From positions 330,001 to 362,000 of the forward strand of contig NC_006138.1 in assembly GCF_000025945.1 (NCBI RefSeq): a stretch of 32,000 bases of DNA, read 5' to 3'. A program made the position numbers and the translations under genes. This DNA comes from Desulfotalea psychrophila LSv54. Lineage in GTDB: Bacteria; Desulfobacterota; Desulfobulbia; Desulfobulbales; Desulfocapsaceae. Of the stretch, positions 7,055-28,189 are shown one piece after another; the first letter of the stretch is position 1; every line of letters starts with the position of its first letter. The notes beneath the pieces were generated by a model, which did not search any database, had not been told where the DNA came from, and saw only the letters and a program-made list of their open reading frames with translations.

Positions 7055-7244
7055 GCTTGCCATTGCAGAAAGAGAGAGGATCTTAAATCAGTACATTCTG
7101 CAACCAATGAGCCAGCAAGCTCTACCAGAAAAAAAACTGGCGCGGGTAAATCCTCTTAAAAACAGATTTTGAGCATCTCACTGAGGTGGAACAAGACAAA
7201 TCATTCACATTGACCTAACAGCATAGTTTTTTTTGGAGAAAATA

Positions 7245-8387
7245 ATGAGCGACAAAGACATCACCTGCCCCAAGTGTTCACACCAACAAAACAGTGAGGC
7301 AGAATGCGAGTCCTGCGGTATTATTTTCGCAAAGCATCAACTCTTTCTTGAAAAGAAAAAGGCGACAGCAGAGGCGCAAGAGATTCCACTCCCTGAGAGA
7401 AAAAGAGAGGTCAGCGGCCCTTCATTTACCATCCTGATCCTCCTTCTGGTCTTATGTACTGCCGCCACCACCTATTATTTTGTAAAACCAAGGGCCACCG
7501 CCCCGCCGCCAACTATCACAGCCAGCGAAAGCAGAACTGTAAAACCTGCGTCCACAGGTAAAATTACCCGACAAGAGCTTGCTCCCCTAACCAATTTGAC
7601 AACAACAGATGCTATTGCCAGGGCCCTACGGGCGACGGTACAGATACGGACAGCATGGAGTACCGGCTCCGGTTTTTTCCTCACCGATAGTTTTATTATC
7701 ACCAATCGGCATGTGGTAAAAGCCGTAAAACAGGACTTTTCGGAGCAGCGAAGAAATATCAACAATACAAGAAAACTGGTGGAGCTTGAAAAGCAGAAGA
7801 TACGCAATCTCCATGCACGGCTGAAAAAGATGGCCAAGGGCCCGGGACGCGAACAGCTAAAAATTATTATTGCAGAACATGAACGCCAACTTGCCCTGGT
7901 ACTCCCAAAACTTTCACAGAAAGAAAACGAATTAAAAAATTTGGAAAAGGCAGTGACAGAGAGAGGTGACATTGTTGTCTATATGGCCGATGGTAGCAAA
8001 CACACTGGATATCTCACCCAGGTAAGTGACCACTATGACTTAGCTCTTCTTTCTATCTTTTCCGTCGAGCATGGCAAAATCCCCCTAGCGCCAGCGGGCT
8101 CAAAGCTCCAACAGGGAGATAAGGTTTATACTATAGGCAGCCCCGTCGGCCTACAAAACACTGTTACTGCAGGCATTTTCTCTGGCTACAGAAGAGCAGA
8201 TGACAGTAAAAAAATATATCTGCAGACAGATGCGGCAATTAATCCAGGAAATAGCGGTGGGCCGCTCATTGACGAAAACGGTCATATTCGTGGCATAAAC
8301 ACCATGGTTCTAAAAAATACAGAGGGTATTGGCTTCGCCATTCCCATTGAAAAGGTTTATGAGGATTTTGGTTCAGTCCTTTACTAA
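7245..8387 (+). CDS. Membrane-anchored trypsin-like (S1C/HtrA-like) serine protease with N-terminal zinc ribbon, no PDZ
   Basis: CPKC...CESC zinc ribbon, one TM (FTILILLLVLCTAATTYYFV), catalytic His (ITNRHVV), Asp (YDLALLSI) and Ser (NPGNSGGPL). GGAG lies 6 nt before the ATG at 7245; the track ORF opens at a TTG at 7233. Confidence 0.85.
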   Translation: MSDKDITCPKCSHQQNSEAECESCGIIFAKHQLFLEKKKATAEAQEIPLPERKREVSGPSFTILILLLVLCTAATTYYFVKPRATAPPPTITASESRTVKPASTGKITRQELAPLTNLTTTDAIARALRATVQIRTAWSTGSGFFLTDSFIITNRHVVKAVKQDFSEQRRNINNTRKLVELEKQKIRNLHARLKKMAKGPGREQLKIIIAEHERQLALVLPKLSQKENELKNLEKAVTERGDIVVYMADGSKHTGYLTQVSDHYDLALLSIFSVEHGKIPLAPAGSKLQQGDKVYTIGSPVGLQNTVTAGIFSGYRRADDSKKIYLQTDAAINPGNSGGPLIDENGHIRGINTMVLKNTEGIGFAIPIEKVYEDFGSVLY

Positions 8388-8569
8388 ACAATTAGCTTAA
8401 CAGCTGGCCATGCGTCCGAGTTGAAGGAGGGGCATGAAACTAGCTGGCAAGATGTACAACAAAATACAATTATTCACAGTTATCTCCCCTAGGCAGTAGC
8501 TTAAATCAGCAAACAGCTTCTAACAAACAGATCTATTCCCCCCCCGAAATCCATCCCTATGGAGGAAGT

Positions 8570-10213
8570 ATGATTACAGTTTTGCATGGATACCTGCTTG
8601 AAGGCTCAGGAAGCAACCTATGGACCCGTGCCACTGTCCAATCTCTCTGTGAAAGCGGAGAAACCGTCCACCTCATGTGTCAAGAAAACCATCCGGATCT
8701 CTATGATTTTATCAGTGACGCAATACTTTATAAGGCAAATGGGAAGAGGGAAACCTTACTAAAACGCAAACCCATCTATCCAGGCAGATGCATTATGCAT
8801 AAACCGCATATAGGAGAGACACTGCCTGTCTATGTAAAGGATAAATATGAAGAATTTTCTGACGTACGACCAATGGTTGAACTCAGTGATGGAGAAATTG
8901 AAACATATCTGCGGACAAACGTTAAAATACTCCAGCAAATAGTAGACGAAAATGAAATTAAGGTTATTCTTGCCAACCATGCCGTTCTTATGTCTGTCGT
9001 TGCCCAACGAGTAGGAAAGACACGAAATATCCCCTATGCTATAATGCCCCATGGGAGCGCCATCGAATATGCTGTAAAAAAGGACAGGAGATATTTTAAC
9101 TATGCCGAAAGTGCATTTGCTGAGGCACAGAGAATATACGTCATTGGCAAAGAGATGAGAGAGAGGCTCAAGAACCTATTCACAAAATTGCCTCAGATTG
9201 AAGACAAAATGAAAGAGTTAAATCTGGGGGTCAACACCTCCCTCTTTAACCCCATAAAGAGAGAAGAGAGAAAAGACAATATAGGCAAGCTCTGCCTGGC
9301 ATTAGAAAAGGTGCCACGGGGCAAGACAGGCTCTCAACAGTCCATGCCAGAACAACTGACAGCCGATATTTCCAAGCGAAACTTATTGAGTATTATACAT
9401 GCCTCATCCTCTTACCATGCAAAATTTCCAGATGATAATGTCGAAGAAAAGTTGCAAATGGTGGAGTGGAATAATGAAAAAATCATTCTATTTGTTGGTC
9501 GACTCATCGCAAACAAAGGTCTCCATTCAATCATAGCCGCCCTACCTGAAATACTTGCCAATCAAGTAAATACACGCCTGATCATAGTAGGACACGGTCC
9601 ACAACGCGAACAACTTGAAACACTTATTTGGGCATTACAAAACGGACACTCAGACTTAGTCCTTAATCTTGTAAACTGGGGAAGAGAGCTGGAGGGTGAC
9701 GGGGAAAGCGCCTGGCAAGAGATACAGCTCTATTTTAATCACCTGAAAAAACATGATAAGCTGACTCCATATTTTAAAAAAGCGCAAAAGCACCTGAAGC
9801 AAGACAGCGTAATATTCACAGGATACCTTACTCACAAAGAGCTGTGTCACCTGTTTCCTGCATGCGACGTAGCAATTTTTCCATCTATTGTCGCCGAGGC
9901 CGGCCCCCTGGTATTTTTAGAGGCAATGGCCTCAGCTTGCTTTCCCATCGGCACATATTTTGCTGGCATGGCGGCGAGCATAGATTCCGTAGCAGATGCC
10001 CTTCCTCAGAATGTAGTAGACTTAATGAAAATAAGTCCACGGCCTGAGCAAACGGTAATGGATATCATAGCGAAGACAAAAGGCGCCCTCTCTGTTGACA
10101 GATATTACAAAGAAAAATTACGCAGGATTGCCATTGAAAAATATGATTGGAAAAACATCAGCAAAGTCCTGGCCTCAGATTTACACAGATTGCAGACATT
10201 AGTGAAAAGATAA
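8570..10213 (+). CDS. GT-B fold glycosyltransferase (family 4 / 'glycosyl transferases group 1'-like), unusually long
   Basis: 547 aa with GGAGGAAG SD upstream. The C-terminal half has the GT4 pattern (ILFVGRLIANKG..., FPSIVAEAGPLVFLEAMA with the E-x7-E-like motif). Extra inserts sit between the two Rossmann halves. Substrate is unknown. Confidence 0.75.
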   Translation: MITVLHGYLLEGSGSNLWTRATVQSLCESGETVHLMCQENHPDLYDFISDAILYKANGKRETLLKRKPIYPGRCIMHKPHIGETLPVYVKDKYEEFSDVRPMVELSDGEIETYLRTNVKILQQIVDENEIKVILANHAVLMSVVAQRVGKTRNIPYAIMPHGSAIEYAVKKDRRYFNYAESAFAEAQRIYVIGKEMRERLKNLFTKLPQIEDKMKELNLGVNTSLFNPIKREERKDNIGKLCLALEKVPRGKTGSQQSMPEQLTADISKRNLLSIIHASSSYHAKFPDDNVEEKLQMVEWNNEKIILFVGRLIANKGLHSIIAALPEILANQVNTRLIIVGHGPQREQLETLIWALQNGHSDLVLNLVNWGRELEGDGESAWQEIQLYFNHLKKHDKLTPYFKKAQKHLKQDSVIFTGYLTHKELCHLFPACDVAIFPSIVAEAGPLVFLEAMASACFPIGTYFAGMAASIDSVADALPQNVVDLMKISPRPEQTVMDIIAKTKGALSVDRYYKEKLRRIAIEKYDWKNISKVLASDLHRLQTLVKR

Positions 10214-10306
10214 GGGTTAAGAGGATCTTCTTAAACTCGATTTCCGGCATCCAGCCAAATAAAGACATTGCTCGTCGGTGAATCCAATAATAAATGGGAG
10301 CAGATA

Positions 10307-10771
10307 ATGAGACGCCGTGACAAGGAGATAAAGGAGAGGAAAGAGATAGACAAGATTATTAACAGATGCACAGTATGCCGATTGGGAATGGCAAAAGACA
10401 ATATCCCCTATATAGTCCCCCTATCCTTTGCCTACGATGGATTAAACATCTACTTCCATACAGCTAAGAAAGGGCAAAAGATAGAGTATATAAACTCAAA
10501 CAGTCAGGTTTGCCTTGAATTTGAGACCGATATTAAGCTCATATCTGATGAAACATCACCCTGTCAATGGGGATTCTCATTTCAGACCGTCTTCTGCCAG
10601 GGCATGGTTACAGAAATTACCAATAAAGAGAAGAGAGTTGAGGCACTCAAACTGATAATCGCCCATTACTCAGAGAAGAAATGGGCGCTAGATGAGAGGA
10701 TGCTCAAATCAGTCAGAGTTTGGCAGGTCTCAATAAAGAGTTGGACAGGAAGCTCATCCAAGGACCGTTAA
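10307..10771 (+). CDS. Pyridoxamine 5'-phosphate oxidase-like FMN-binding protein (Nim-like subgroup)
   Basis: [62 protein letters not shown] matches the N-terminal pattern I recall for Nim/PNPOx split-barrel proteins. GGGAG lies 6 nt upstream of the ATG at 10307; the track ORF opens at a TTG at 10268. Confidence 0.75.
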
Positions 10772-10789
10772 TAATAATAATAATAATAG
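10769..10789 (+). repeat. (TAA)x6 + TAG microsatellite: seven consecutive in-frame stop codons
   Basis: Read directly: TAATAATAATAATAATAATAG begins with the stop codon of the PNPOx-like gene and ends 10 nt before the DHFR start. Confidence 0.95.
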
Positions 10790-10799
10790 AAGAGGTCAT

Positions 10800-11273
10800 A
10801 TGAAGATTTCACTCATGGCGGCAAAGTCTGAAAACGGAGTCATTGGTAAAGGAGCGGATATCCCCTGGATGGTCAAAGGGGAGCAGCTCTTATTCAAGGC
10901 GATAACCTTCAATCAATGGCTACTGGTTGGGAGAAAAACTTTCGACTCCATGGGGGTTCTGCCCAACCGTAAATACGCAGTCATCACCAGATCCGGCCTC
11001 CTCTCGCAGAATGACAATGTCCTCGTTTTTCCTTCCATAGAGGATGCTCTCCGTGAACTTGCTCAACAGACAGAGCATATTATAGTTGCAGGTGGTGGAG
11101 AAATATTCAAGGCCATGATTAACAGAGCCGACACCCTACATCTATCAACGGTTCATCAAAATATCGACGGAGATATTACCTTTCCTCAAGTACCGAAGGA
11201 TTTTAAATTAGTATTTGAGCAGTACTTTGAATCAAATATTAATTATACCTACCAGATATGGCAGAGACCATAG
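10800..11273 (+). CDS. folA: Dihydrofolate reductase, DfrA1-like (type A trimethoprim-resistance family homologue)
   Basis: 157 aa. DHFR motifs are [53 protein letters not shown] and a C-terminal [11 protein letters not shown]. By hand it aligns colinearly, without gaps, to my recalled DfrA1 sequence at roughly two-thirds identity (memory-based, unverified). Confidence 0.9.
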
Positions 11274-11806
11274 GCGACAGCAGACAGGATAAGTGTTGGG
11301 TTCCCACATGATTACAAAACCAAATCTACTCATATCAGCAAGAGCCATGAATTAGGCCACCACACCTTTGAAGCGGATCATATTCGAAAAGACGGGACAA
11401 TCTTTCCTGTCTATCACGACGTGACAACGGTGATAGATGAAGAGGACAGGCCTCTCTACAGTATCGTCAATATGTTGGATATCACCGATAGAAAAAGAGA
11501 TGAAAAAATTTCGTACTCACTTGGAAAAGCTTGTCGATGAACGGACCCAAGAGCTACAAAAGGCCTTAAATGAAATTAAGACATTAGAGGAAATAGTACC
11601 CATCTGTTTACATTGCAAAAAAAATACGCGACGACAAGGGCCACTGGAATCTCTTGCAGGCATTCCTAGAAAAACACTCCGACGCCTCCTTTAGCCATGG
11701 GATCTGCCCCGGATGCGTAGAAGAGTTCTATGGAAACGAGCCCTGCTCACAAGTCAGGTTCGGCTACTCATTCTATTTTCCAAGAGACTATGATAGTCTT
11801 CTATGA
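11274..11806 (+). pseudogene. 5'-truncated, twice-frameshifted remnant of a PAS-domain signalling protein with Cys-rich C-terminal tail
   Basis: Three frames read consecutively: ...FEADHIRKDGTIFPVYHDVTTVIDEEDRPLYSIVNMLDITDRK (PAS C-terminus), then MKKFRTHLEKLVDERTQELQKALNEIKTLEEIVPICLHCKK, then IRDDKGHWNLLQAFLEKHSDASFSHGICPGCVEEFYG. The frame switches fall at an A5 run (11492-11496) and an A8 run (11617-11624). The first frame has no start codon and runs in frame directly from the DHFR stop codon. Confidence 0.6.
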
Positions 11807-11959
11807 AGAGAGGGGGCGATCCCCTTCAGACTCCTGCAACCAGAGCGCTGAGGATCAACCAATAAGGCACGGTAAGATTTTCAATACCCCGTTACCCTGT
11901 CCTAGCAGGACATTTACAACAGTGCCCGTACATTGAACCCTTAACAGATAAAAAACGGC

Positions 11960-13309
11960 ATGAAGACATTTAACTTATTCAGAAAACACCCCCTCATCCT
12001 GATAGCAGGGATATGGACAATCCTCGTGAGTGCCCTGATTGCGCATGAGATAAACCACCTGCATGCCGAAACAGAGACAACAGCCATAACTGAGGCCCAT
12101 ACCATTTTTAAAAAGGATTTGGCCCTGCGCCACTGGGTCGCCTCTCATGGCGGAGTCTATGTCCCCATCGATGCCACGACCCCGGCAAATAAGTACCTTG
12201 TCCACCTGCCGGAGCGTGACATCCAAACGCCCTCAGCGAAAAATCTCACCCTGATGAACCCGGCCTATGCCATGCGGCAGATGCACGAGTCCTATGCCAA
12301 GACATATGGAGTAAGAGGGCATATCACCAGCCTCAAGCTGCTTAGACCGGAAAATATAGCGGATCTGTGGGAAACAAGGGCCCTGCAGTCCTTTGAACAG
12401 GGAAAGAGGGAGGTGAGTGAGCTTACCGATCTCAGCGGCAAGCCATTCCTCCGCTATATGTGGGCGATGATCACCGAAAGGCCCTGTCTTAAATGCCACC
12501 AGGGATACCAAGTGGGAGATGTCCGGGGAGGCATCTCTGTATCAATACCAATGACTGATCTCCTGGCAAAGGAAAGTCGGGAACGTCTAGAGCTGCTCTT
12601 ATCACATGGTCTGATATGGCTTAGCGGTTTGCTTCTCATCTACTTTGGGGGGCGGAGAGTGATGCTTAGCACAGAGGAGCGCAATCAGGCCAATAAGGAG
12701 CTGCTGCGCCATAAGCAGCATCTTGAAATTAAAATAAGGCAACGCACTGCAGAACTCACCGAGGCCAATCAAAAATTAGAGCATATCTCACTCACCGATG
12801 GCCTGACAGGTATAGCCAATCGTCGCCATTTTGATAATCTCATCGCCAAGGAGTGGTCTCGGGCCATACGGGAGAAAACCCCCATTACTCTCATCATGAT
12901 TGATATTGATTATTTTAAACTATTTAATGATCTCTATGGCCATCCTGAGGGTGATATATGTCTCAAAACAGTTGCCATGGCCCTCAATGCTGAGATGAGA
13001 CGATCGACTGACTTTGTGGCGAGATATGGCGGGGAAGAGTTTGCAGCTATCCTGCCTAATACGGGCGGGCCAGGAGCTCTGGTCATGGCAGAGAAGATGA
13101 GGGCAAGTATTGCCAAACTTGAGATTGAACATAAAGATTCAGAGATAAATAACTACCTCACCATTAGTCTGGGCGCTATCTCAGTCGTCCCCAAAAAAGG
13201 TTCAGACTTCAGCCATTTCATTGAGCAGGCGGATAAGGCCCTATACACGGCGAAGACAGAGGGTCGTAATCAGGCAAGAGCTTTCTCGCCTGATGGTGAG
13301 AATGCCTAA
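11960..13309 (+). CDS. Sensor diguanylate cyclase: periplasmic DUF3365-like heme-c domain + TM + coiled coil + GGDEF
   Basis: N-terminal TM, a periplasmic domain with a CXXCH motif (PCLKCH), a second TM, then a GGDEF domain (LTGIANRRHF..., RYGGEEFA active site, KALYTAKTEGRN). Confidence 0.85.
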   Translation: MKTFNLFRKHPLILIAGIWTILVSALIAHEINHLHAETETTAITEAHTIFKKDLALRHWVASHGGVYVPIDATTPANKYLVHLPERDIQTPSAKNLTLMNPAYAMRQMHESYAKTYGVRGHITSLKLLRPENIADLWETRALQSFEQGKREVSELTDLSGKPFLRYMWAMITERPCLKCHQGYQVGDVRGGISVSIPMTDLLAKESRERLELLLSHGLIWLSGLLLIYFGGRRVMLSTEERNQANKELLRHKQHLEIKIRQRTAELTEANQKLEHISLTDGLTGIANRRHFDNLIAKEWSRAIREKTPITLIMIDIDYFKLFNDLYGHPEGDICLKTVAMALNAEMRRSTDFVARYGGEEFAAILPNTGGPGALVMAEKMRASIAKLEIEHKDSEINNYLTISLGAISVVPKKGSDFSHFIEQADKALYTAKTEGRNQARAFSPDGENA

Positions 13310-14731: not shown

Positions 14732-15349
14732 TTAAGGGTGGGGCTCCTGCAGAAGACGATAGGCAAAAAATACTCGAACGACGGTGGTCACCAGACAGAG
14801 CAGGGCGAAAAAAAGCGCCAGAGCGGGGAACCACTGGGGCAAGAGACAGAAGAGAATAAAAAAACAGATGGTCTCCGTCCCCTCGGCAAGACCGCCAAGA
14901 TAGTAAAACCCCTTAGAGGGATAGACAATAAGGGGAAGAGACCTCCTCTCGGCGAAGACGGCAAAGGCCAAAAAAGAGGAGGAGGTACCCATAAAGGCAG
15001 CCAGAAGCAGGTCAGCAGCCAGGGCATTCTCCCCAGGCGCGGCCAGGGCAAAGCCCAGAACTACCACGGCATAAAAAATAAAATCACAAACTATATCAAG
15101 ATAGGCTCCATCATCGCTTGCCCCCTGAATACGGGCCAAGGCCCCATCCACCCCATCCAAAAACCGATTAAGACAGATACAGAACAGGGCAGGAATATAC
15201 TGTTCGACCGCTAAAAGAGGCAGGGTAACAAGGCCACAGCAAAGGCCAAAGAGGGTTACCCGATTGGCAGTGATGTCCCGGGCATGGAGGAGACGAGCGC
15301 AGAAGGATAAAAAAGAGCTGGTTCTGGGTAGTATATAACGATCGAGCAT
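14732..15349 (-). CDS. CDP-alcohol phosphatidyltransferase family membrane protein (YnjF-like)
   Basis: Signature D(x)2DG(x)2AR...G(x)3D(x)3D is seen as LDGVDGALARIQGASDDGAYLDIVCD, with multiple TM segments. The ATG for MLDRYILP at 15349 lies 4 nt after the upstream ATPase stop; the track ORF extends to 15403. Confidence 0.8.
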   Translation of the reverse strand: MLDRYILPRTSSFLSFCARLLHARDITANRVTLFGLCCGLVTLPLLAVEQYIPALFCICLNRFLDGVDGALARIQGASDDGAYLDIVCDFIFYAVVVLGFALAAPGENALAADLLLAAFMGTSSSFLAFAVFAERRSLPLIVYPSKGFYYLGGLAEGTETICFFILFCLLPQWFPALALFFALLCLVTTVVRVFFAYRLLQEPHP

Positions 15350-15353
15350 AGCT

Positions 15354-15977
15354 TCACCCCTGAGAAAAAACGATTTTAGCAGCCAACACATCCTCACTGT
15401 CATGGGTCACCAACAGGGCAGGGATATCCATCTCCTCTACCTGCTCCACCACGAAGGCCCTAAAGCTCTGCCTGAGGGCTGCATCAAGCTGAGAAAATGG
15501 CTCATCAAGAAGAACAAGGCGTGGCCTTGCCAACAGGGTTCGCAGCAGTGAGACACGCGCCTTCTGCCCACCAGAGAGGGTCTGAACAGAACGCTCGGCA
15601 AAACCTGCAAGTCCCGCCCCTGCCAAGGCCTGCGCCGCTTGCAGAGGTCGCTGCTTACCCGGCACGGAACCGGGCAGGGCAAAGGCCAGATTCTGACCGA
15701 CATTCATATGGGGAAAGAGCAGGACTTCCTGAAAGAGAATCCCCACCTGCCGTCTCTCCATGGGCAGGCCCAAGAGAGAGGCCCCATCCAGAAGAATCTC
15801 TCCCGAGAAGGTAAAGACCGGATGCAGGCAACCGCTGACCAGGGAGAGCAGGGTCGATTTACCACAACCACTGGGCCCCATAAAGGAGAGAATCTCTCCC
15901 CGCGCCACCACGGCACTGACCGGGGCAAAGAGAGCTTTACCCTGCAGGGATATCTGCACATCTTTTAGTTCAAGCAT
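15354..15977 (-). CDS. ABC transporter ATP-binding protein (YnjD-like)
   Basis: Walker A GPSGCGKST, signature LSGGQKARVSL, Walker B LVLLDEPFSQLD and H-loop VTHD. The start MLELKDVQ at 15977 has an AAGAGGA SD. The 29-codon upstream extension in the track is low-complexity and unlikely to be translated. Confidence 0.85.
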   Translation of the reverse strand: MLELKDVQISLQGKALFAPVSAVVARGEILSFMGPSGCGKSTLLSLVSGCLHPVFTFSGEILLDGASLLGLPMERRQVGILFQEVLLFPHMNVGQNLAFALPGSVPGKQRPLQAAQALAGAGLAGFAERSVQTLSGGQKARVSLLRTLLARPRLVLLDEPFSQLDAALRQSFRAFVVEQVEEMDIPALLVTHDSEDVLAAKIVFSQG

Positions 15978-16104
15978 TTTTTCCTCTTTTGCCTTTGCTC
16001 TTGAGTTTGACCGACTGCACCGGAGAGAGCCACGGGGGCTGCTAGTTGAGCCAGCAATGCTCAACGGTTCAACACCTTTTATCAGGCTAATGATGAATGC
16101 CCTG

Positions 16105-16670
16105 TTATGCCCTTATATATCTACCGTATGATTCAACCCTTGTTAAAAGCCTATTAGAGAGTAGTTTGTTAGCTACATGAAGATGTTGGTGGATCAGCAG
16201 GGCCTCTTCTTTGTAGGCAAGGCGCCTTTCATTAGTCCAGGACCATGGTGGCTCTGATAAATTAGTTGTTCTGTCCGCCAGCTTTACCCCATCCATACCT
16301 CTTTCGGTTGTAACTTTATCCTGTTCAAGAAATCCAGTATCTGTTCTTTCTTGAAGGCAAGATCTTCGTTTTTGGTAAGGGCATTAACACCTTGGGCCAC
16401 TTCCAGGCCGAAATTGCCTTCAATAGTTTTAAAATCTACATCTGTATCTTCAATAGTGTCATGGAGAAGAGCGCATTGGATGGCAAGATCACCGTTTAGA
16501 TTGGGATTAGAATTTAGTCCGCAAATTAACTCCATAGCTACACTACCTATGTGGTTAAGATAGGGTATTCGTTGACCTTCGATCGGCGCTCCATATGCCT
16601 GTCCTTCATGCGCCATAGTTGCAAAACCCCAAGCTTTGACATATAGATCTTGAGACCAGTTTTGCGTCAT
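16105..16670 (-). pseudogene. RelA/SpoT-type HD (HD_4) phosphohydrolase, small-alarmone-hydrolase-like, split by a frameshift
   Basis: ORF 16284..16670 carries AHEGQ...PYLNHIGSVA...LLHDTIEDT...GVNALTK and ends ...KEVWMG*. ORF 16105..16296 continues in another frame with VKLADRTTNL... The junction is a G4 run (plus-strand CCCC at 16287-16290). Adding one G restores a single product of about 190 aa. Confidence 0.7.
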
Positions 16671-16755
16671 TTTCTATCCTTATTTCAGGGCTATTTTAGG
16701 CATATTTTAAATCAGGAGCGCGGCTTTTTGCATCCGCTAAAGTGTCATGTTAGAT

Positions 16756-17172
16756 TTATTCAATGTGTCGCTCTATCTCACTTCTAATATCATTAGCCGT
16801 CTGCTCAGGTGTTGCCAATCCAGCAGCAACCAGAAAACATAGAAAGGAAACAATTCCAACGAGAATTGTTGACGTGTTATTTTTGATTTTTAAATGAACC
16901 GAAATTATGAGCCAGATCCAAGACATACAACCAATAATAAATAATAGGTTGTATAATTTCTCTCCTGGCACTCCAAACCAGTTAACTGCTGAACAAGACA
17001 TGAGATACCCAGCAATAGCAAAAAGAAGCCACCCAATGGAAATCTCTTTTTCATCTTGATTTAATAATAATGTCCAATCAAAGTTCGAATCTTTAAATTC
17101 GTTATCGAGCTTTTTGACGGCAGTAACATTTTTTTGGATCTTATCCAATTTTGAACCAATATCAATTGACAT
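16756..17172 (-). CDS. Hypothetical 3-TM membrane protein with N-terminal amphipathic/coiled segment
   Basis: 138 aa. A strong AAGGAGG SD is embedded in the last codons of the upstream ORF, with a 3-nt gap. Three hydrophobic spans: IGWLLFAIAGYLMSCSAVNWF, LYNLLFIIGCMSWIWLIISV, ILVGIVSFLCFLVAAGLA. I recognise no family. Confidence 0.6.
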   Translation of the reverse strand: MSIDIGSKLDKIQKNVTAVKKLDNEFKDSNFDWTLLLNQDEKEISIGWLLFAIAGYLMSCSAVNWFGVPGEKLYNLLFIIGCMSWIWLIISVHLKIKNNTSTILVGIVSFLCFLVAAGLATPEQTANDIRSEIERHIE

Positions 17173-17175
17173 AAC

Positions 17176-17553
17176 CTACCTCCTTTTCGGAGGATTAAGT
17201 ACTTTGCCTATATCTTTATCTGCATCTCCTTCAGACCAATCCGTATCCTCTCCCTTAATGAAAAGTATACGATTCTCTTCCATAGATATGTTTGTTCCAC
17301 CAAATGTAACTCCATCGATGTTTCCACTAACAAGTCTCTGTGGTACTACTTTAAGTATCTCATTAACTGTTTCGTAGGTATCTTTTACCGAATAGTCATC
17401 TTGGAGGCCGCTCTCGAGCTTTACCTCTACGACACCGCCCTGCATCTTAGCGGGATAGACAATAATATTCATTCCAATATCACGCCTTAACCTAGGTTTG
17501 AGTACCTTTTGTATTTTTTCGATATATTTATTTATAATATTTCTATCTTTCAC
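17176..17553 (-). CDS. Hypothetical small soluble protein (orphan)
   Basis: 125 aa with a GTG start preceded by AAGGAG at 8-nt spacing. Basic N- and C-termini and a beta-rich middle. Translationally coupled to the 3-TM ORF. I recognise no family. Confidence 0.55.
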   Translation of the reverse strand: MKDRNIINKYIEKIQKVLKPRLRRDIGMNIIVYPAKMQGGVVEVKLESGLQDDYSVKDTYETVNEILKVVPQRLVSGNIDGVTFGGTNISMEENRILFIKGEDTDWSEGDADKDIGKVLNPPKRR

Positions 17554-17739
17554 ACTTGATTCTCCTTAAATGCCCAACAATTTATTATTCACAAACTAGA
17601 TATCTCCCCCGTAAGCCAAATCCCTGCCAAACAAAACCACTGCATCTTCTAGCAAGAAACCACCGCCAAGCCAAGCCATTTAACTTGTTTTTGAAGTAAG
17701 TTAGCAACGTAACAGCTACTTAGCCCCTACCTCTCCCTC

Positions 17740-19434
17740 TCAGGCCTTCGACTGCCGAGAGAAGAAGAGGGCAGCGGAGTAGACCAGCAGAGGGAGAGCA
17801 AGCTGGAGAAGGGCATAGACAGCGGTGACTCGCATATCGCCTCCTGAGACCCTATTCACCGCCTCGGTGGTGATTGTGGGGAAACGTCCTGCCCCCACAT
17901 AGAGGGTGGGCAGGTACTGGACAAGGCTTACAGAAAATCCCGTTGCCAGAGAGAAGGCAATGGTCTTTTTCAGCATGGGGAGCTTCACCTGCAAAAGAGC
18001 GCGCCACCACGACCCGCGCAGAGAGAGGGCCAGATCAAAATAACGATTATCAAAAGAGCGATAACTCTGCCCCAGGGTAATAAAGACATAGGGCAGAACA
18101 AAAACCACATGGGAGAAAAGAAGGGCGACAAAACTGCCATCAAGTCCTGAGAAAACCGCTACCATCTGCAGACCAAAGACAAAGGAGATCTGGGGAAGAA
18201 GAAAGGGCAGATAGAGTAACCACAGACTGCGCCGCACCCGCGTCCCCTCTCCCCGCTGAAGAAGAACTCGCTCATACTCCAGACATCCCACCACAAGAAC
18301 AAGAGAGATCAGAGCGGATAAAACCCCCAAAAGAAGGGTTACCACGATGGGTTCCTGGGCTGAAAGCAGGCCCCTGTACCAGTAATGCCAGCTATAACTG
18401 GCGGGGAGGATATCCGGAAAACGCCATCTCCGCGAAACGGAGAGCAGGGCCAGACCGGCAAAGGCCGCCATAAAGAGAAGGCCCAGAGCCATAAGAAGTG
18501 GCCCGGCCCCGGCAAATACTCTGTCAAAAAGGGACGATCTGCCTCCACCAAGAAGCAGGGTCTGCCCCAGGCGGGCAAGTAGCCTCTCCGCCAAATAGCA
18601 GAGAGTAATGGCCAAAAGCACCAACAGACAGAGGGAGGTGGCCCCGGCCGAGGCAAGAAAAAAAGAGCTCGCCTCCCCCTGAATAAACCAGGAATGAACC
18701 AGAACAGCCAGGGTTGGCGGGCGGGAGGGGCCAATAATAAGGGCCACATCCACCACAGAGAGAGAGTAGGCCAGAACTGCCCAGAAAGAGAGGCGAAGAT
18801 GGGGGTAGAGTTGAGGGAGAATAATGGTCAACCAGATACGGGTCGGACCATAGCCAAAACTCTTCCCCAGCCAAATGAGCTTACCCGCCTCAATACGGCT
18901 CAGGGCCGCTATCCCCATAAAGAGAAGAAAGGCAATCTCCTTACAGGCAAGGACAAAGGCCAAACTTAGCCCCCAGGGATCTGCCACCAGGGAAAAGTTG
19001 GGGGGAATAGTCCAGCCGGTAAGCAGTGAGGCCAAGAGGCGCATCAGCCAACCACTGGGACTCAACAAAAAGAGAATGCCCAGGGTAAAGGAGACATGGG
19101 GAATGGCCAACCAAAAACCCAAAATGCGGTGCAGGAAGGCCCACATCTTCGTTCCATAGAGCCCCGCCAAAAGAAATAGGGCAACAAAGAGGGCCGCAAA
19201 GGAGGCCGCGAAGCCCGTTGTCAAGGTCAGCAAGAAGGCATCCCTCACCGCCGGATGGTCGAGAAAACGACTCAGATATCTACCGGTAAAACCCTCTCCT
19301 CCCAAGGCGGGCCAAAAGCCAAGGGCGGGTAAAATTGTGGCCACTCCTCCGAGGAGGACGGGCAAGAGAAAGAGCGAGAGACTTAAACAGGGAAAAAGGG
19401 CCAGCAGGATCTCTTTAGTAGATCTTGCCATCAC
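17740..19434 (-). CDS. ABC transporter permease, fused two-domain type (YnjC-like)
   Basis: 564-aa polytopic protein with two tandem binding-protein-dependent permease halves. Its start overlaps the SBP stop (ATGA). Confidence 0.85.
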   Translation of the reverse strand: MMARSTKEILLALFPCLSLSLFLLPVLLGGVATILPALGFWPALGGEGFTGRYLSRFLDHPAVRDAFLLTLTTGFAASFAALFVALFLLAGLYGTKMWAFLHRILGFWLAIPHVSFTLGILFLLSPSGWLMRLLASLLTGWTIPPNFSLVADPWGLSLAFVLACKEIAFLLFMGIAALSRIEAGKLIWLGKSFGYGPTRIWLTIILPQLYPHLRLSFWAVLAYSLSVVDVALIIGPSRPPTLAVLVHSWFIQGEASSFFLASAGATSLCLLVLLAITLCYLAERLLARLGQTLLLGGGRSSLFDRVFAGAGPLLMALGLLFMAAFAGLALLSVSRRWRFPDILPASYSWHYWYRGLLSAQEPIVVTLLLGVLSALISLVLVVGCLEYERVLLQRGEGTRVRRSLWLLYLPFLLPQISFVFGLQMVAVFSGLDGSFVALLFSHVVFVLPYVFITLGQSYRSFDNRYFDLALSLRGSWWRALLQVKLPMLKKTIAFSLATGFSVSLVQYLPTLYVGAGRFPTITTEAVNRVSGGDMRVTAVYALLQLALPLLVYSAALFFSRQSKA

Positions 19435-20669
19435 CTATGACCATAGCGCGCTTGCCACTCCTCTTCTATCATCACCGTCCAAGAGGGATGCGGCTCAGGA
19501 TAGACCCTGCCCAGCTCCTCTGCAGAGAGGGTGGCTGGACCTGAATGACCGATAAAAAGTGCTTTTTGCCGATCATTCAACTTTTCCATGGCCAGTACCG
19601 TTGGATCACCCCAGACTGCCAGATCACTTTTTTGGGCCTGGGCCTCGGGTGAGAGTAGCATATTAATAAAGACCAGGGCGGCTGCCCTGTTTGAAGAGTT
19701 TCGAGGAACGGCCAGAAAATGGGTATTGGCCAGGGAACCACTGCTATGGACATAGGTCCGCACAGAGTCGGGGAGCTCTCCGTTTTCTATGGCCCTGCTG
19801 GCCTCGTTGGGATTAAAGGAGTAGGCAATAAATATTTCCCGGTTATCTAGGAGGGAGACAAGGGCCGGAGAACTGGTAACAAAGGTATTTCCCTTGCGCC
19901 ACATAAGGGGATGAAGACGATCCAGATAATGCCAAAGAGGGGCCGTCACCCGGGAAAAATCCTCTTTTTTGACGGGGGCGAGCAGTGCCTCTGGCTCCGA
20001 TATACTCTCCAGTAAGAGCTGTTTCAGAAAGGCTGTCCCGTAAAATGAAGGAGGGGCAGGATAGGTGAAACGACCGGGATGGGCCTCGGCAAAGACAAGT
20101 AGCTCCTCCATGCTATGGGGCGGCTGAGCCAGAACATCTGTATCGTACATAAAAACCAGTTGAGCCATTCCCCAAGGAGTCTCGTAACCATCCACCGGCA
20201 CGGTAAAATCACGTTGCACAGTCGGTTTCTGCCAATCCACCAAGGCGGCATTGGGTAGCAAATTGCGGGGAACCTGATAGAGCAGATCACTCTTTTTGAG
20301 TTGTTGAAAATTTTCCCCGTTTATCCAGAGCAGATCCACCCGCCCACCGTCAAGACGCCCGGCAGATTTTTCCACCAGAAGGCGACCAACAACTTCTGCA
20401 ATATCAGTGACCTTGACATGTTTGACCTCTATTCCATACTTCTCTTGGGCCCTTCGACTAGCCCAAGAAACATAGTCGTTTATGGGCTCAGAGCCACCCC
20501 AGGCATTAAAGTAGATGGTCTGACCACGGGCCTCCCCTTCAATCTGCGCCCAAGCCCCAAGGGCGGCAGAGGAGTTCTGGATAAAGAGGAAGAGAAAAGA
20601 GACCGTAACAAGAAACGGCCAAACAAACCTACCTTTCACCAAACATTTCACCAAAAAGTTTTTCCGCAT
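19431..20669 (-). CDS. ABC transporter periplasmic substrate-binding protein (YnjB-like)
   Basis: Signal peptide (FVWPFLVTVSFLFLFIQNSSAALG) and an extracellular solute-binding fold of about 390 aa. Alternative starts lie at 20675 and 20681. All candidate starts lie inside the 3' end of the K+ channel gene. Confidence 0.8.
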   Translation of the reverse strand: MRKNFLVKCLVKGRFVWPFLVTVSFLFLFIQNSSAALGAWAQIEGEARGQTIYFNAWGGSEPINDYVSWASRRAQEKYGIEVKHVKVTDIAEVVGRLLVEKSAGRLDGGRVDLLWINGENFQQLKKSDLLYQVPRNLLPNAALVDWQKPTVQRDFTVPVDGYETPWGMAQLVFMYDTDVLAQPPHSMEELLVFAEAHPGRFTYPAPPSFYGTAFLKQLLLESISEPEALLAPVKKEDFSRVTAPLWHYLDRLHPLMWRKGNTFVTSSPALVSLLDNREIFIAYSFNPNEASRAIENGELPDSVRTYVHSSGSLANTHFLAVPRNSSNRAAALVFINMLLSPEAQAQKSDLAVWGDPTVLAMEKLNDRQKALFIGHSGPATLSAEELGRVYPEPHPSWTVMIEEEWQARYGHR

Positions 20670-22332
20670 CTGCATTCCCAATAAGAATTAATTCGGTGGA
20701 TTTCACCAGAGGTAGGGTGGGGTCAGGGCCAACCAAAAGCTCTCCATCCATCCTTAGAGCCACAACACTACAACCCGTCTCTTGCCGCACATTACTTTCA
20801 GCCAGGGTTTTGCCAACCAGGGCCCCCGGAATCTGCTGAACAAAGAAGTTCATCCCCTCAATAAAGAGAGAGCCCTCATCGGGTTTAAAGACCTTCATGA
20901 TACGATTTGCCCCCATGGAGGCGTAGGACATTACCAAATCAGCACCAGCCATATGTAGCTTGCTGACACTTCTTTCATTGGTGGCACGACTGATAATCTG
21001 AATATCCGGGCGCAGTTGACGACAGTAAAAGGTGAGATAGATATTGGCGGCATCGTCGTGGGTGGTGATAATGGCGGCCCGGGCATTTTCTATTCCCGCC
21101 TCTATAAGAACATCTCTATTGGCCGCATCTCCCGCAACAAAATTCACTCCCCCTCTGGCAACAACGGCAGAGGACTTCTCAACCACCCGATATTTCACTC
21201 CATAGCCGTCAAGTACCTGACTCGCTGCCAAGCCCACCCGACCTCCACCCAAAACAAGAACCAGCTTATCGTCCTCGGAGGAGAGGTCTGTAATAATAAA
21301 TTTTTCTTCAAAGCAATCGAGTTGGGCCAGAGTGCCAGCCAGGAGAAGGCTTGAAGATTTATTAATAATAGTTTTTGCATGAAGAGCTTCAAACTGCCCC
21401 TTTTCCCAGAGGCCCACAAGAGTCGCCCCTGTTCGCGTGCGAAGCATGGTCTCGGTCAAAAGAAGCCCGCCCAGACTTGTCTGTGAAACGGGTATTTCGG
21501 CGATATGAAGCTGATCAAAGCTGCTGACAATCTTGGTCAGCCGCCCCACCCCCCGCACCCGTTCAGCAAGAGATTCACCCAACATCTTCATAAAGAGAAA
21601 GACCTGAGTATTTCCAGGAAAATTAAGAATATCAAGAGAATGCTCCTTATCAGCTGCGGCAACAATGGGCACCTTGGCGGTGATCCCCCGAATGGTAAAG
21701 GAGATATTTGTGGCCATCATATCATCGTTGGTAATCACCACCAGGGCCGCATCCTCCACCCTGACACTCAAAAAGGTATCCGGATCATCGGGCTCGCCAA
21801 CCACAATTTTGTAGCCCTGATCATGCAACTCCATACCCCTCTGAGCATCGGCAACAATGATCACATAGTCATAACCACGACGCTTGAGCTTTTCAACAAG
21901 CCTCTCGGTGATGGGATCGAGATGAGTAATGATAACATGGCCACTAACCCCCTTAACCAGCTCACGCGGGGTACGTTTTCTCGTCTGCGCCTCAAGCCAG
22001 GGCGCATAAAAGAACTGAATAAAGGAGAAGGGAAGCATGATGAGGAGAAAGACAACCCCGGAGAGGAGGACAACAATGGTAAAGAGGAGGCCCAGATCGG
22101 TATGAAAGGTGATATCACCGAAGCCCAGGGTCGACATCACCGTCAGGGCCCAGTAAATACCGGTTATCCAGGAGTACTCCTTACCCTCATAGAGCATAAT
22201 CAGATGAAAGAGTACGCTATACAAGGTTACCATGCACAGGAGAAAGACAAAGAACTTGGCCAGGGCGGCAAGGTTTCGCTGCGACCCCTTATTTTGAAAA
22301 AAGTAGAGTATCTGGGATGGGAGAAATTTCAT
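20629..22332 (-). CDS. Potassium channel protein with two RCK/TrkA-N domains
   Basis: 2-TM pore module with selectivity-filter-like TVMSTLGFGDIT, followed by two Rossmann-type RCK domains (HVIITHLD..., LVLGGGRVGLAAS...) with TrkA-C-like segments. Confidence 0.85.
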   Translation of the reverse strand: MKFLPSQILYFFQNKGSQRNLAALAKFFVFLLCMVTLYSVLFHLIMLYEGKEYSWITGIYWALTVMSTLGFGDITFHTDLGLLFTIVVLLSGVVFLLIMLPFSFIQFFYAPWLEAQTRKRTPRELVKGVSGHVIITHLDPITERLVEKLKRRGYDYVIIVADAQRGMELHDQGYKIVVGEPDDPDTFLSVRVEDAALVVITNDDMMATNISFTIRGITAKVPIVAAADKEHSLDILNFPGNTQVFLFMKMLGESLAERVRGVGRLTKIVSSFDQLHIAEIPVSQTSLGGLLLTETMLRTRTGATLVGLWEKGQFEALHAKTIINKSSSLLLAGTLAQLDCFEEKFIITDLSSEDDKLVLVLGGGRVGLAASQVLDGYGVKYRVVEKSSAVVARGGVNFVAGDAANRDVLIEAGIENARAAIITTHDDAANIYLTFYCRQLRPDIQIISRATNERSVSKLHMAGADLVMSYASMGANRIMKVFKPDEGSLFIEGMNFFVQQIPGALVGKTLAESNVRQETGCSVVALRMDGELLVGPDPTLPLVKSTELILIGNADAEKLFGEMFGER

Positions 22333-22516
22333 ATTTCATAATAGAATCAACTGTTCGCAATTCAGATGCAAATCTGACTCTATTCTACCTCATAAAAACG
22401 TTTAAGATAATCGGGGGACGGAAAAGATAAGCTTAATTTAAACATGCTTTCCCCCCAACCGCAAATGCCATCTGAAAAAAGCGAATCTCTCTACAAATCC
22501 CCCTTACAAACCTTAT

Positions 22517-22590
22517 ATTACAGCAAGACACGATTGGGAAAGTATTACATTGTTGTAAATAATCATTGCGACTACATTACATTATTGTTA
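22517..22590. promoter_or_regulatory. Candidate operator: repeated ATTACATT-N-TTGT(A/T)A boxes upstream of amt-glnK
   Basis: ATTACATTGTTGTAA (22544-22558) contains the inverted repeat TTACA-N4-TGTAA. ATTACATTATTGTTA (22576-22590) matches it at 13/15, with 32 nt start-to-start. An extra ATTACA half-site is at 22517-22522. The boxes lie 110-185 nt upstream of the amt ATG. Confidence 0.3.
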
Positions 22591-22700
22591 CTTTATGAAA
22601 AAGAGAAACGCTTCAACCAGCACAATCACCCATAGATGAGCCTAAAAGCAGAGCCCATATACACAACAAGGCTTAACCACAATCTAATAGGAGATACACC

Positions 22701-24385
<1,685 letters not shown>

Positions 24386-24493
24386 GCCATGCCGGGTAGC
24401 TTCCAACCATAAAAATAGATTGGCAGAACGGCATCTCTTTCAGTAAGATCAAAAACAGAAAACAAAGACCCACAAACATTAGAGGAGAAGAGA

Positions 24494-24646
24494 ATGGCTG
24501 AAGAAGAAGTTTCACAGGAAAAACTTGATACCATGGACGAGACCCTTATTCAAATGGAGATGCTCTACAAATCCCGCTGCGTAGGCATGCCAGGCACTAA
24601 CAATGTTACCATACGGGACATTCCCTGCAAAAAAGAAGAGGTGTAG
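24494..24646 (+). CDS. Possible small acidic protein (50 aa), hypothetical
   Basis: Not in the track because it is under 60 aa. The ATG is preceded by AGAGGAGAAGAGA. Product: MAEEEVSQEKLDTMDETLIQMEMLYKSRCVGMPGTNNVTIRDIPCKKEEV. I recognise no family. Confidence 0.35.
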   Translation: MAEEEVSQEKLDTMDETLIQMEMLYKSRCVGMPGTNNVTIRDIPCKKEEV

Positions 24647-24658
24647 ATCCCCCCGAAA

Positions 24659-25387
24659 CTACCACTTTTCCTGCAGATGCCTGGCCACCAGGGCGGCACT
24701 CCTTATTGCAGATTCGAAACTGGCATGAAAATCTGCAATAATCGTCTCATCAGCAGGATCAAACCTGTCTGCAATGGATTTTGCCACGGCATAGGGAAGC
24801 TGGAGGCGACCTGCCACCTGAGCAAAGCCTCCCGCCTCCATCTCAATCAGACCCACCCCCGAGACAAGCTTGGCAAGTTCCATTTTACGCTCACGGGTTC
24901 CGGAAAATTCGGCACCCGTCACCACACATCCCCTACAGCTCCGCAGTCCCACCACCCCCAAGCAGAGGGATGATAGCGTTTCATCCGGATAGAGACAGGG
25001 ATCGTGGCCCAAGCCATCGGCTCCAGAGCGTAGGGACTGCCCCGGCCGCACTAAAAAACGACCCATATCAAAAAAGGCACAGGAATCATGCTGTAAAATT
25101 TTCTCAGCTACAACCAAATCCCCCACCTCCCGGCTACTCTCCAGGGCACCACCGACACCCAATAGGACAAGGGCAGCCAGACTATAACGACAGGAGAGCT
25201 CCGTAACAGCGCAGGCCGCATTAACCCCGCCAAGCCCTGAATATGCCAGGATAATTTGCCTACCCGAAGAGCTAGTGGCACTATAGAGACCCGCGTGATG
25301 CTTTTTAACATTTTTTACCATGCGACAGATGCCCTTCAACTCCTGAGGCATGGCACAGAGAATCAACAGGGAAGGAGTTTCTTTCAT
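24659..25387 (-). CDS. Nucleoside phosphorylase superfamily protein (MTA/SAH nucleosidase-like)
   Basis: PNP_UDP_1-like pattern: LLILCAMPQEL..., YSGLGGVNAACAVTEL, LLGVGGAL, IEMEAGGFAQVA. The ATG for MKETPS at 25387 lies 1 nt after the tupC stop, so it is probably the last gene of the tup operon. Confidence 0.7.
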   Translation of the reverse strand: MKETPSLLILCAMPQELKGICRMVKNVKKHHAGLYSATSSSGRQIILAYSGLGGVNAACAVTELSCRYSLAALVLLGVGGALESSREVGDLVVAEKILQHDSCAFFDMGRFLVRPGQSLRSGADGLGHDPCLYPDETLSSLCLGVVGLRSCRGCVVTGAEFSGTRERKMELAKLVSGVGLIEMEAGGFAQVAGRLQLPYAVAKSIADRFDPADETIIADFHASFESAIRSAALVARHLQEKW

Positions 25388-25388
25388 T

Positions 25389-26423
25389 TTATAGACCGGT
25401 ACAGGAAATGGCATGTGAAGGAATAGTCACAGCCAGCTTATCGCCCACCATGAGAGAGAGGCTTCGATAGTTTTCGTAATTTGTATAGATAATAAGAGGA
25501 ATCCCAATATCAAGCTGCAGCTTAACAAGAGACCTATGTCGACTGATCCCCACGAGATGGCCTGAGTAAACATTATCCTCCTGCCCAACTGCCATGCCAC
25601 TCCCTAAGAGAGAAAAGCCTATCCCCTCGGGATCAACCCACAGCTTCAGCTCCTGTGCAGAGGAGGGGAGGCAGGCTCCTGACACTCGAAGAAGCAAGCT
25701 ACCAGCAAGCTGCCAAATAGTATCAGCCCCTTTCTCACCCACCAACTGCCCCCTATAGACATTTTCATTGAGGACATTGGAGAGAGAACCGTTTTGTAAG
25801 AGCAGAGTATGATCGGCAAGACGATGCCCCTGAGAAAGATAATGGGTAGAAAAGATTATCGATGTCCCCCTCTCCCTGTTTATCCTCTCCAGAACGGCAA
25901 GAATCATCTCTTGATTCTCATTATCAACATTAGCACTAGGCTCATCACAGATTAACACCTCAGGATAGACGGCCAGGGCCCGGGCCAGGGCAACCCTCTT
26001 CGTCTCCCCACCGGATAATTTTTGGGCATCATCACCGGAAAATTTTTCCAGACCGACCAAGCGGAGCATCTCGCCAACCCGAGCCACCACATCCACCTTT
26101 GCCAGCCTGCGTACCCGCAGACCAAAGGCCACATTTTCTGCAACGGTACCGGAAAACATAATGGGACTCTGATCAAGCTGCACCACCTGCCGCCTAAAGG
26201 CCAGGAGCTGTTTTTTGCCATAGGCCACCCTCTCGCCAAGAAACTCTATCTCACCGCTGCTCGGTCTATCGAGAAAGGAGAGCAACTTAAGCAGAGTCGT
26301 CTTACCGGCACCATTAGGCCCCGTCAAGCTGTAGACCTTACCCTTCTCCAGCAGAAGATCCTCAATATCCAAAACAACCCGATCGCCATAAACCCTGGTC
26401 ATTTTCTTTATTCTATAGAGCAT
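25389..26423 (-). CDS. tupC: Tungstate/molybdate-type ABC transporter ATP-binding protein with C-terminal TOBE-like extension
   Basis: Walker A GPNGAGKTT, signature LSGGETKRVALARAL, Walker B LICDEPSANVD and an extra C-terminal domain of about 110 aa. It overlaps tupB by 11 nt. Confidence 0.8.
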   Translation of the reverse strand: MLYRIKKMTRVYGDRVVLDIEDLLLEKGKVYSLTGPNGAGKTTLLKLLSFLDRPSSGEIEFLGERVAYGKKQLLAFRRQVVQLDQSPIMFSGTVAENVAFGLRVRRLAKVDVVARVGEMLRLVGLEKFSGDDAQKLSGGETKRVALARALAVYPEVLICDEPSANVDNENQEMILAVLERINRERGTSIIFSTHYLSQGHRLADHTLLLQNGSLSNVLNENVYRGQLVGEKGADTIWQLAGSLLLRVSGACLPSSAQELKLWVDPEGIGFSLLGSGMAVGQEDNVYSGHLVGISRHRSLVKLQLDIGIPLIIYTNYENYRSLSLMVGDKLAVTIPSHAISCTGL

Positions 26424-27117: not shown

Positions 27118-27147
27118 ATCCTTCCCTTTCTACTTGAGAGGCAAAAC

Positions 27148-27187
27148 AAAAAAAAGCCCGGGCAAGCGATATACACTCGGCCCAGGC
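27148..27187 (-). terminator. Intra-operon stem-loop plus U8 tract between tupA and tupB (attenuating terminator)
   Basis: Minus-strand RNA reads GCCUGGGC-(16 nt)-GCCCGGGC, 8 bp including one G-U pair, followed by UUUUUUUUGUUUU. It lies 98 nt after the tupA stop and 28 nt before the tupB start. Confidence 0.5.
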
Positions 27188-27284
27188 TTCCATATACAAA
27201 GTTACCGAAACTTCCCTGCGGAAGATATTAGATATCTACCCCAAGTCCAAGTCTCCCGTCAACTCCTGTATCTTAGAAAAGAGA

Positions 27285-28181: not shown

Positions 28182-28189
28182 TTTTCCTC

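Follow-up and report, generated by a model that had tools for sequence, protein, structure and literature searches.

A probable acquired islet with a candidate phage-exclusion gene pair between the permease and ATPase genes of a ynjBCD-type operon in Desulfotalea psychrophila

The present study concerns a 32,000-nucleotide (nt) stretch of the Desulfotalea psychrophila LSv54 chromosome (NC_006138.1, positions 330,001 to 362,000; hereafter the window), in which an ATP-binding cassette (ABC) transporter operon of the ynjBCD type carries three further genes between its permease and ATPase genes. We consider it probable that this gap is a horizontally acquired mosaic islet of two unrelated units, and that the first of them, a pair of small genes (DP0321-DP0320), is a candidate phage-exclusion module, its function being read from genomic context. 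The second unit would be a small alarmone hydrolase (SAH) gene, inactivated by a 2-nt insertion and carried along as a decaying passenger. The permease stop at 17740 and the ATPase start codon at 15977 are 1,762 nt apart on the minus strand (15978-17739), the region from permease to ATPase being covered by DP0318 to DP0322. This agrees with an earlier note on the same DNA, which had put the gap at about 1.76 kb. The features needed below are as follows.

19431-20681, minus strand: gene for a YnjB-type substrate-binding protein (SBP; NF008633/PRK11622, 513.6 bits against a cutoff of 203)
17740-19434, minus strand: DP0322, ynjC-type fused double permease of 564 amino acids (aa), apparently intact, the left flank of the gap
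17554-17739, minus strand: spacer 5' of orf1, 186 nt, 42.5% G+C
17176-17553, minus strand: orf1 (DP0321), soluble alpha/beta protein of 125 aa, first gene of the pair
16756-17172, minus strand: orf2 (DP0320), membrane protein of 138 aa, second gene of the pair
16671-16755, minus strand: spacer between the pair and the HD gene, 85 nt, 37.6% G+C
16105-16670, minus strand: the HD gene, a pseudogene of a PaSAH-type SAH (RelA/SpoT HD domain), made up of DP0319 and its -1-frame continuation
15978-16104, minus strand: spacer before the ATPase start, 127 nt, 50% G+C, host-like
15354-15977, minus strand: DP0318, ynjD-type ABC ATPase of 207 aa (ABC_tran E 4.6e-31; COG4136), intact, the right flank of the gap
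14732-15349, minus strand: CDP-alcohol phosphatidyltransferase gene, ynjF-like (PF01066 E 4.4e-8), the conserved fourth gene of the operon

The site of the gap is empty in relatives. Gene order in the window (14732-22332) was compared with that in four further loci, L006, L007, L050 (from a metagenome-assembled genome, MAG, of Desulfopila sp.) and L051, and in E. coli (L018, 6074-11404). All four loci read SBP-permease-ATPase-CDP-OH_P_transf, with 0, 0, 37 and 81 nt between permease and ATPase. Since the order is the same, and since an upstream Ion_trans_2/TrkA K+ channel gene is common to the window and three of the four, we regard these loci as orthologous. In E. coli MG1655 there is a 1-nt overlap between ynjC and ynjD, with ynjF two genes away; the statement in the earlier note that ynjB, ynjC and ynjD are contiguous there was therefore correct, and the junction comparison that it had proposed finds the site unoccupied. 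Judged by gene order, the gap is a lineage-specific insertion in the D. psychrophila lineage, because permease and ATPase lie 0 to 81 nt apart in four syntenic relatives and adjoin in E. coli as well.

Both flanking genes appear to have come through the event unharmed. The permease, a 100% match to LSv54 CAG35051 that carries the labels COG4135/K05778, aligns at its C-terminus with four orthologues and ends only about 4 aa short of them. The ATPase is 53 to 57% identical to its orthologues from residue 1, and two orthologues beginning MLEI/MTLRL fix its start at ATG 15977, in agreement with the 207 aa of RefSeq WP_041277491.1. The older annotation of DP0318 (CAG35047, 236 aa from TTG 16064) is thus too long, running 29 codons into the spacer (15978-16064). 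Downstream of the insert no displaced remnant of the permease 3' end was found, nor any displaced gene fragment in the spacers. Since neither the C-terminus of the permease nor the N-terminus of the ATPase is damaged and no fragment is displaced, the insertion is best placed between genes: the acquired islet would have landed in the intergenic junction of a native operon and left both neighbors whole. The 127-nt spacer before the ATPase, which holds an AGAGGA ribosome-binding site, is possibly the original junction.

The composition of the gap sets it apart from its surroundings. Its G+C content is 0.400, against a mean of 0.487 (standard deviation 0.036) for windows of the same size across the 32 kb, and lies at about the minimum, with only 0.17% of such windows as low. 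The G+C content at third codon positions (GC3) is 0.32 in orf2, 0.33 in orf1, and 0.38 and 0.41 in the two pieces of the HD gene, whereas it is 0.53 to 0.60 in all eight neighboring genes, both within the operon and outside it (msrA, sodB, a diguanylate cyclase, and the K+ channel). Given this contrast, the operon is host-like in composition, unlike the insert. The insert had been called compositionally foreign from single-line counts, and the sliding-window analysis suggested at that time does show a compositional break. These data also bear on a reading in which the three genes would be native to the transporter operon of this lineage and functionally linked to it, or the gap would have arisen as an artefact of assembly. 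Such a reading could draw on the co-orientation of the genes with the operon and on the fact that a terminator-like site was not found in the insert. Nevertheless, GC3 lies 0.2 below that of every neighbor, the genes are missing from E. coli and from all four syntenic relatives, homologues of them are found in unrelated contexts, and the record is a finished 3.52-Mb chromosome. We find it hardly credible.

The pair is the conserved part of the insert. A word-indexed search returned three orf1 homologues, each directly trailed by an orf2 homologue; an exhaustive profile search extended the orf1 family to 137 clusters at 50% identity, nearly all of them stand-alone proteins of about 125 aa, and scans of genomes, metagenomes and IMG/VR supplied 36 further loci. 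An orf2-family gene stands directly behind a complete orf1 in 31 of 33 cellular or metagenomic loci and in all four viral contigs (35/37); the two without it are L040 and the short contig L043; L042, cut inside orf1, was left out of the count. The description of these two genes as orphans therefore has to be given up. At the junction, orf2 mostly overlaps orf1 by 1 or 4 nt elsewhere and begins 3 nt beyond its stop in the window, where the 186-nt spacer ends with an AAGGAG ribosome-binding site 7 nt ahead of the GTG start of orf1. In six of the seven loci examined, the pair has a lower G+C content than its surroundings. These observations show that the two genes form a unit, probably translationally coupled and moving as one among Proteobacteria and Desulfobacterota.

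Neither protein of the pair matches Pfam or NCBIfam. The orf1 product aligns with phrog_18061 (E 1.3e-12; residues 3-118 on profile positions 3-119 of 125), a family with no assigned function, so that membership says nothing about mechanism. Its AlphaFold2 model is confident (predicted local distance difference test, pLDDT, 85; predicted TM-score, pTM, 0.80), with the order alpha-beta-beta-beta-alpha-beta-beta-alpha, and resembles two uncharacterized phage proteins in BFVD (TM-score 0.65 and 0.52). Conserved positions of the family include a GTN motif and IKG(D/E)D..W. The orf2 product has a hydrophilic N-terminal part of about 45 aa, three hydrophobic segments by hydropathy, and a short C-terminal tail; a profile search of it against the PDB returned hydrophobic noise only. 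In one family member, P0303 (447 aa), an HNH endonuclease domain (191-231) is attached to an orf1-family domain (residues 4-121); among ten checked, no other informative fusion turned up. This fusion fits a sensor or adaptor domain able to couple to different effectors. Two other members, P0358 and P0335, have a Cys-rich N-terminal region with no Pfam match.

The genomic settings of the pair may point toward phage defense. In a Glaciimonas MAG (L013), it lies directly beside GajB and GajA (E 2e-207 and 2e-283). In a Desulfocapsaceae locus (L014), a protein with AbiJ_NTD4+DUF7014 domains is encoded two genes upstream of the pair and Mu-type GemA genes lie downstream. In Desulfobacula (L015/L031), open reading frames (ORFs) with the look of type I hsdM and hsdS follow the pair, a long ORF beyond them may be hsdR, and the neighbor matches include type I methylase and specificity families; in L020 the pair comes directly after hsdM-hsdS. 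In L045 it has a P4-type tyrosine integrase on one flank and a WYL regulator on the other, and it lies near a PIN_12 protein in L034, near a CapR-domain protein in L036, and near a weak TIR-like match in L023. Four IMG/VR viral contigs carry it as well; a first scan was negative, and a second with another clade as query found them. On one of these (L047) a lambda-type integrase lies about 1.3 kb from the pair (E 4e-11 to lambda Int), and on another (L048) a cytosine methyltransferase adjoins it. Taken together, about 9 of 18 non-redundant long loci show such a setting (Gabija, AbiJ-like, type I restriction-modification (R-M) in two, P4-type integrase, four viral contigs), taken as a raw count. 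That about half of the long loci lie in defense-island or temperate-phage settings is suggestive but short of proof.

Other features of these loci may be recorded here. The Glaciimonas locus looks like a compact defense and SOS islet: a complete Gabija system (GajB 569 aa, GajA 711 aa; 7202-11031) comes immediately downstream of the pair, and umuDC and an SRAP gene precede the pair. Of two short metagenome contigs, one (L004, 51-524) has an 8xMP (PF24838) membrane protein upstream of the pair, and the other (L005, 1124-1498) has a 124-aa protein downstream, whose N-terminus is DUF4160-like by eye.

In keeping with these habitats (temperate phages, the vicinity of integrases, and defense islands), the most likely function of the pair would be phage exclusion or abortive infection. 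The soluble 125-aa protein might sense a signal or adapt it and thereby control the 138-aa, three-helix membrane protein, which as the effector would damage or gate the membrane. We advance more tentatively, as a possibility short of even chances, that DP0321/DP0320 represents an undescribed, widespread two-gene anti-phage system acting by abortive infection or superinfection exclusion, carried by temperate phages and defense islands and numbering at least 137 clusters at 50% identity. A sensor fold with no solved relative would then control the three-helix effector, and an HNH nuclease would replace this effector in at least one lineage.

Part of the same evidence could be read as a selfish toxin-antitoxin or addiction module, in which orf2 would be a membrane-depolarizing toxin, orf1 its soluble antitoxin, and the pair would persist because its loss kills the cell, with no dedicated anti-phage role. 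The layout of two small, overlapping genes of which the first encodes the soluble protein, a patchy, AT-rich and mobile distribution, and the survival of the pair in an operon devoid of mobility genes all accord with this. Yet neither protein falls in any toxin or antitoxin family of Pfam, NCBIfam or PADLOC, and orf1 lacks a recognizable DNA-binding domain of the kind usual in type II antitoxins. We regard such a module as unlikely, while noting that it and abortive infection are compatible and do not exclude each other.

The phage connections allow a further explanation, namely that the pair belongs to the accessory (moron) genes of phages, serving holin/antiholin-like lysis control, membrane remodeling or counter-defense, and is here the leftover of a degraded prophage. 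Its phrog_18061 match, the structural likeness of orf1 to two phage proteins, its presence on four viral contigs (in one case next to an integrase), the Mu-like genes nearby in L014, and the decay of the adjacent HD gene would all be accounted for. In contrast, many chromosomal copies stand clear of phage genes and directly beside Gabija or type I R-M, which fits defense islands better than lysis cassettes, and no endolysin or lysis gene was recognized in the four viral contigs when neighboring ORFs were read by eye, a reading made without a family-library scan. We therefore hold this explanation to be improbable, and prefer phage exclusion.

The second unit of the islet is a broken gene. The HD gene is split into a 128-aa ORF (16284-16670) and a -1-frame piece (16105-16296); a GG insertion in the G-run at 16287-16290 leads to a TAA stop at 16284-16286, after codon 128 and before the KLADR..N motif. 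At the DNA level the site reads TGGATGGGGTAAAG in the window and TGGATGGTGAAG or TGGATGGTAAAA in homologues. Removal of the GG restores an ORF of 187 codons with no other lesion. Intact homologues are likewise 187 aa long, are 71 to 76% identical, and read ...LQPKEVWMVKLADR... The uninterrupted frame of about 185 to 190 codons expected of an SAH is thus not present here. The repaired protein reaches 29.6 bits against Pfam HD_4 (cutoff 27.2; profile positions 1-153 of 156), whereas the annotated 128-aa ORF alone stays below the cutoff at 22.9 bits. Across the frameshift junction, residues 7-185 of the repaired protein align with 18-190 of the 191 residues of the Pseudomonas aeruginosa SAH (PDB 6YVC; E 3.3e-23), and Mesh1 is matched at E 3e-11 to 3e-8. 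The 6YVC entry is that of PaSAH, an enzyme that breaks down (p)ppGpp and (p)ppApp (PMC9293644), and the HD gene would have encoded a hydrolase of this class. Three same-strand ORFs had been described in the gap; the layout is as stated, and the correction is that the HD gene is frameshifted.

The frameshift is either a recent inactivation or a sequencing error. On the minus strand, 16284-16292 reads ATG GGG TAA, a run of four G followed by the stop codon. A full-length hydrolase of 188 aa, reading ...WMG-VKLADR..., would result if tRNA-Gly slipped by -1 on G_GGG while TAA occupied the A site; this is less likely than a plain GG insertion.

The hydrolase and the pair do not travel together. A hidden Markov model (HMM) of the SAH family found no match in 41 pair-carrying loci (259 kb), and the HMMs of the pair found none in the five loci that carry the closest SAH homologues. 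Transposases and repeat proteins are the neighbors of the nearest HD homologues, which otherwise stand alone. Since no other locus links the two, the HD gene is best taken as a separate passenger and, because it is inactivated by the 2-nt insertion, as a decaying one that would not be the partner of the pair. The two units are 85 nt apart and differ in G+C content (0.35-0.38 against 0.42-0.44). The last 35 nt or so of the 85-nt spacer are conserved with the DNA upstream of the closest HD homologue (L008; the blastn alignment reaches 16705). No toxic alarmone synthetase partner was seen by eye among ORFs of at least 130 to 150 aa across the 32-kb window, and the SAH stands alone.

These results decide the fate of the proposal that the three genes form one defense or stress cassette, in which the membrane protein would be controlled by a nucleotide signal and the HD hydrolase would break this signal down. 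In its favor, all three genes are closely spaced on one strand and low in G+C, and alarmone signals are the target of SAH-type enzymes, which also function as immunity or antitoxin proteins (PMC9293644, PMC7229694). The separate distribution of pair and SAH, the frameshift ahead of the KLADR..N motif, and the spacer and compositional difference between the units tell against it. As none of the 41 other pair-carrying loci has the HD gene, which is itself frameshifted here, the three-gene cassette is unsupported; we judge it very improbable and largely refuted. The earlier suggestion of a defense or stress module gains support from the context of the first two genes, but not as a single cassette that includes the hydrolase.

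Several points weigh against an acquired islet carrying a phage-exclusion module. The closest permease homologues are only 45 to 52% identical, hence no same-genus genome took part in the comparison; a first scan of the genome collection for close permease relatives had returned none, and one homologue, P0047 from Desulfotalea sp., was not located. The mechanism of insertion was not found, as the searches for mobility genes, attC sites and flanking repeats described below were negative. The frameshift of the SAH could be a sequencing error in the 2004 record. Known defense neighbors, strictly counted, occur in 4 of about 18 non-redundant long loci, and three loci (L016, L037, L044) resemble housekeeping regions. 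With orf1, orf2 and a distant family member as queries, tblastn gave no match in 50,697 GenBank phage records or 72,556 plasmids. PADLOC-DB v2 gave orf1 only a chance-level match to PDC-M24A (E 0.014), and gave none for orf2 or three homologues. The orf1 fold has no characterized relative (best Foldseek PDB E 0.38; PDB profile search negative), and the single-sequence AlphaFold2 model of orf2 is of low confidence (pLDDT 54; helices 46-65, 71-93 and 100-119). The structural check proposed for the two proteins thus gave a confident model of orf1 with no PDB fold match, and a model of orf2 of too low quality for a fold search.

How the islet arrived was sought in the window itself. No integrase or transposase was found among ORFs of at least 130 aa (1-12000) or at least 150 aa (22300-32000), whose translations were read by eye, without a family-library scan, and flanking repeats did not exceed chance level (up to 25 nt at up to 72%, or 10-nt perfect repeats); here the earlier note, which had reported no integrase, transposase or flanking direct repeats, is upheld. 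An insertion sequence or transposon was rejected on the same grounds, as there were no meaningful direct or inverted repeats and no transposase-like ORF among those read. An integron cassette was likewise rejected, as the 32-kb window contains zero RYYYAAC...GTTRRRY core-site pairs at a spacing of 30 to 160 nt and no integrase-like ORF was read. The 186-nt spacer has no similarity to the other loci or to the rest of the window, and the intergenic DNA of the insert shows no similarity to 14 related loci or to the remaining sequence of the 32 kb. It is plausible that a larger phage or island fragment was trimmed by deletion, a history consistent with the decaying SAH gene. The islet would then be a decayed remnant of phage or defense-island origin, with the pair as its live part.

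The genes beyond the insert are probably still expressed. As the insert is co-oriented with the operon and has no terminator-like site on the coding strand, read-through into the ATPase, and with it expression of the phosphatidyltransferase, appears probable. The spacers hold no promoter or terminator signal above chance and no Rfam match. In the host-like spacer upstream of the ATPase gene, 16045-16065 of the minus strand forms a perfect 7-bp hairpin, GTTGAGC-N7-GCTCAAC, which is not terminator-like because it has no T-tract.

The host operon would originally have comprised the K+ channel gene, ynjB-ynjC-ynjD and a ynjF-like gene. A YnjB-type SBP, a fused double permease and a single ATPase are all present, as in the ynjBCD type; the adjacency of permease and ATPase genes that also belongs to the type is lost here to the gap. 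The order K+ channel (Ion_trans_2/TrkA), YnjB-like SBP, fused permease, ATPase, CDP-alcohol phosphatidyltransferase is kept in Desulfobulbales-like relatives, with the phosphatidyltransferase in the same position in L006, L007, L050 and L051. This conserved order, together with the location of ynjF near ynjD in E. coli, suggests an unexplored functional link between an orphan transporter and a phospholipid head-group transferase. No relevant literature was found on DP0319-0321 or on the function of ynjC, ynjD or ynjF. Two details of the gene junctions given earlier need adjustment. The overlap of SBP and permease genes, described as ATGA, is actually GTGATG, i.e., a GTGA or TGATG overlap, and the 4-nt spacing between ATPase and phosphatidyltransferase genes is right when counted from the internal ATG at 15349 and holds only with that start.

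The window contains other stretches of low G+C content (0.39 to 0.43), at 250-1000, 8500-10500 and 22250-22750, perhaps more acquired sequence or AT-rich DNA between genes. A glycosyltransferase-like gene of 547 aa (8570-10213) falls within one of them.

The event that we propose would be an ordinary small scar of horizontal transfer. It suggests that a foreign module can lodge between the cistrons of a conserved operon and break neither neighbor. DP0321/DP0320 belongs to a compact, tightly coupled, moderately widespread and uncharacterized family, which makes it a testable candidate for a new phage-exclusion system. Besides, the broken alarmone hydrolase is a caution against treating adjacent genes of an islet as one system.

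Each part of the region may be set against a known system. The operon resembles E. coli ynjBCD and ynjF in its SBP family match, its COG4135 permease and COG4136 ATPase, and its associated CDP-alcohol phosphatidyltransferase. It differs in that permease and ATPase genes abut in E. coli and are 1,762 nt apart in D. psychrophila, and in that E. coli ynjF lies after ynjE on the opposite strand. The insert recalls integron cassettes, or attC clusters without an integrase, by its small, promoter-poor, co-oriented and AT-rich ORFs of unknown function, but its window has no attC core-site pair. The repaired HD gene aligns end to end with PaSAH, a member of the Mesh1/SAH branch among RelA-SpoT homologues, and its HD...HD...D motifs are preserved, whereas the D. 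psychrophila copy stops at residue 128 through the 2-nt insertion.

For the pair, the closest parallel is RexA/RexB of phage lambda, a prophage-borne abortive-infection module of two genes, one for a soluble protein and the other for a small polytopic membrane protein. The pair has no sequence or fold homology to it (no Pfam family, no PDB match), its gene sizes are different, and its membrane protein has three predicted helices rather than four. The resemblance is one of architecture, a soluble protein with a small membrane protein, and accords with the phage or defense-island settings of the pair.

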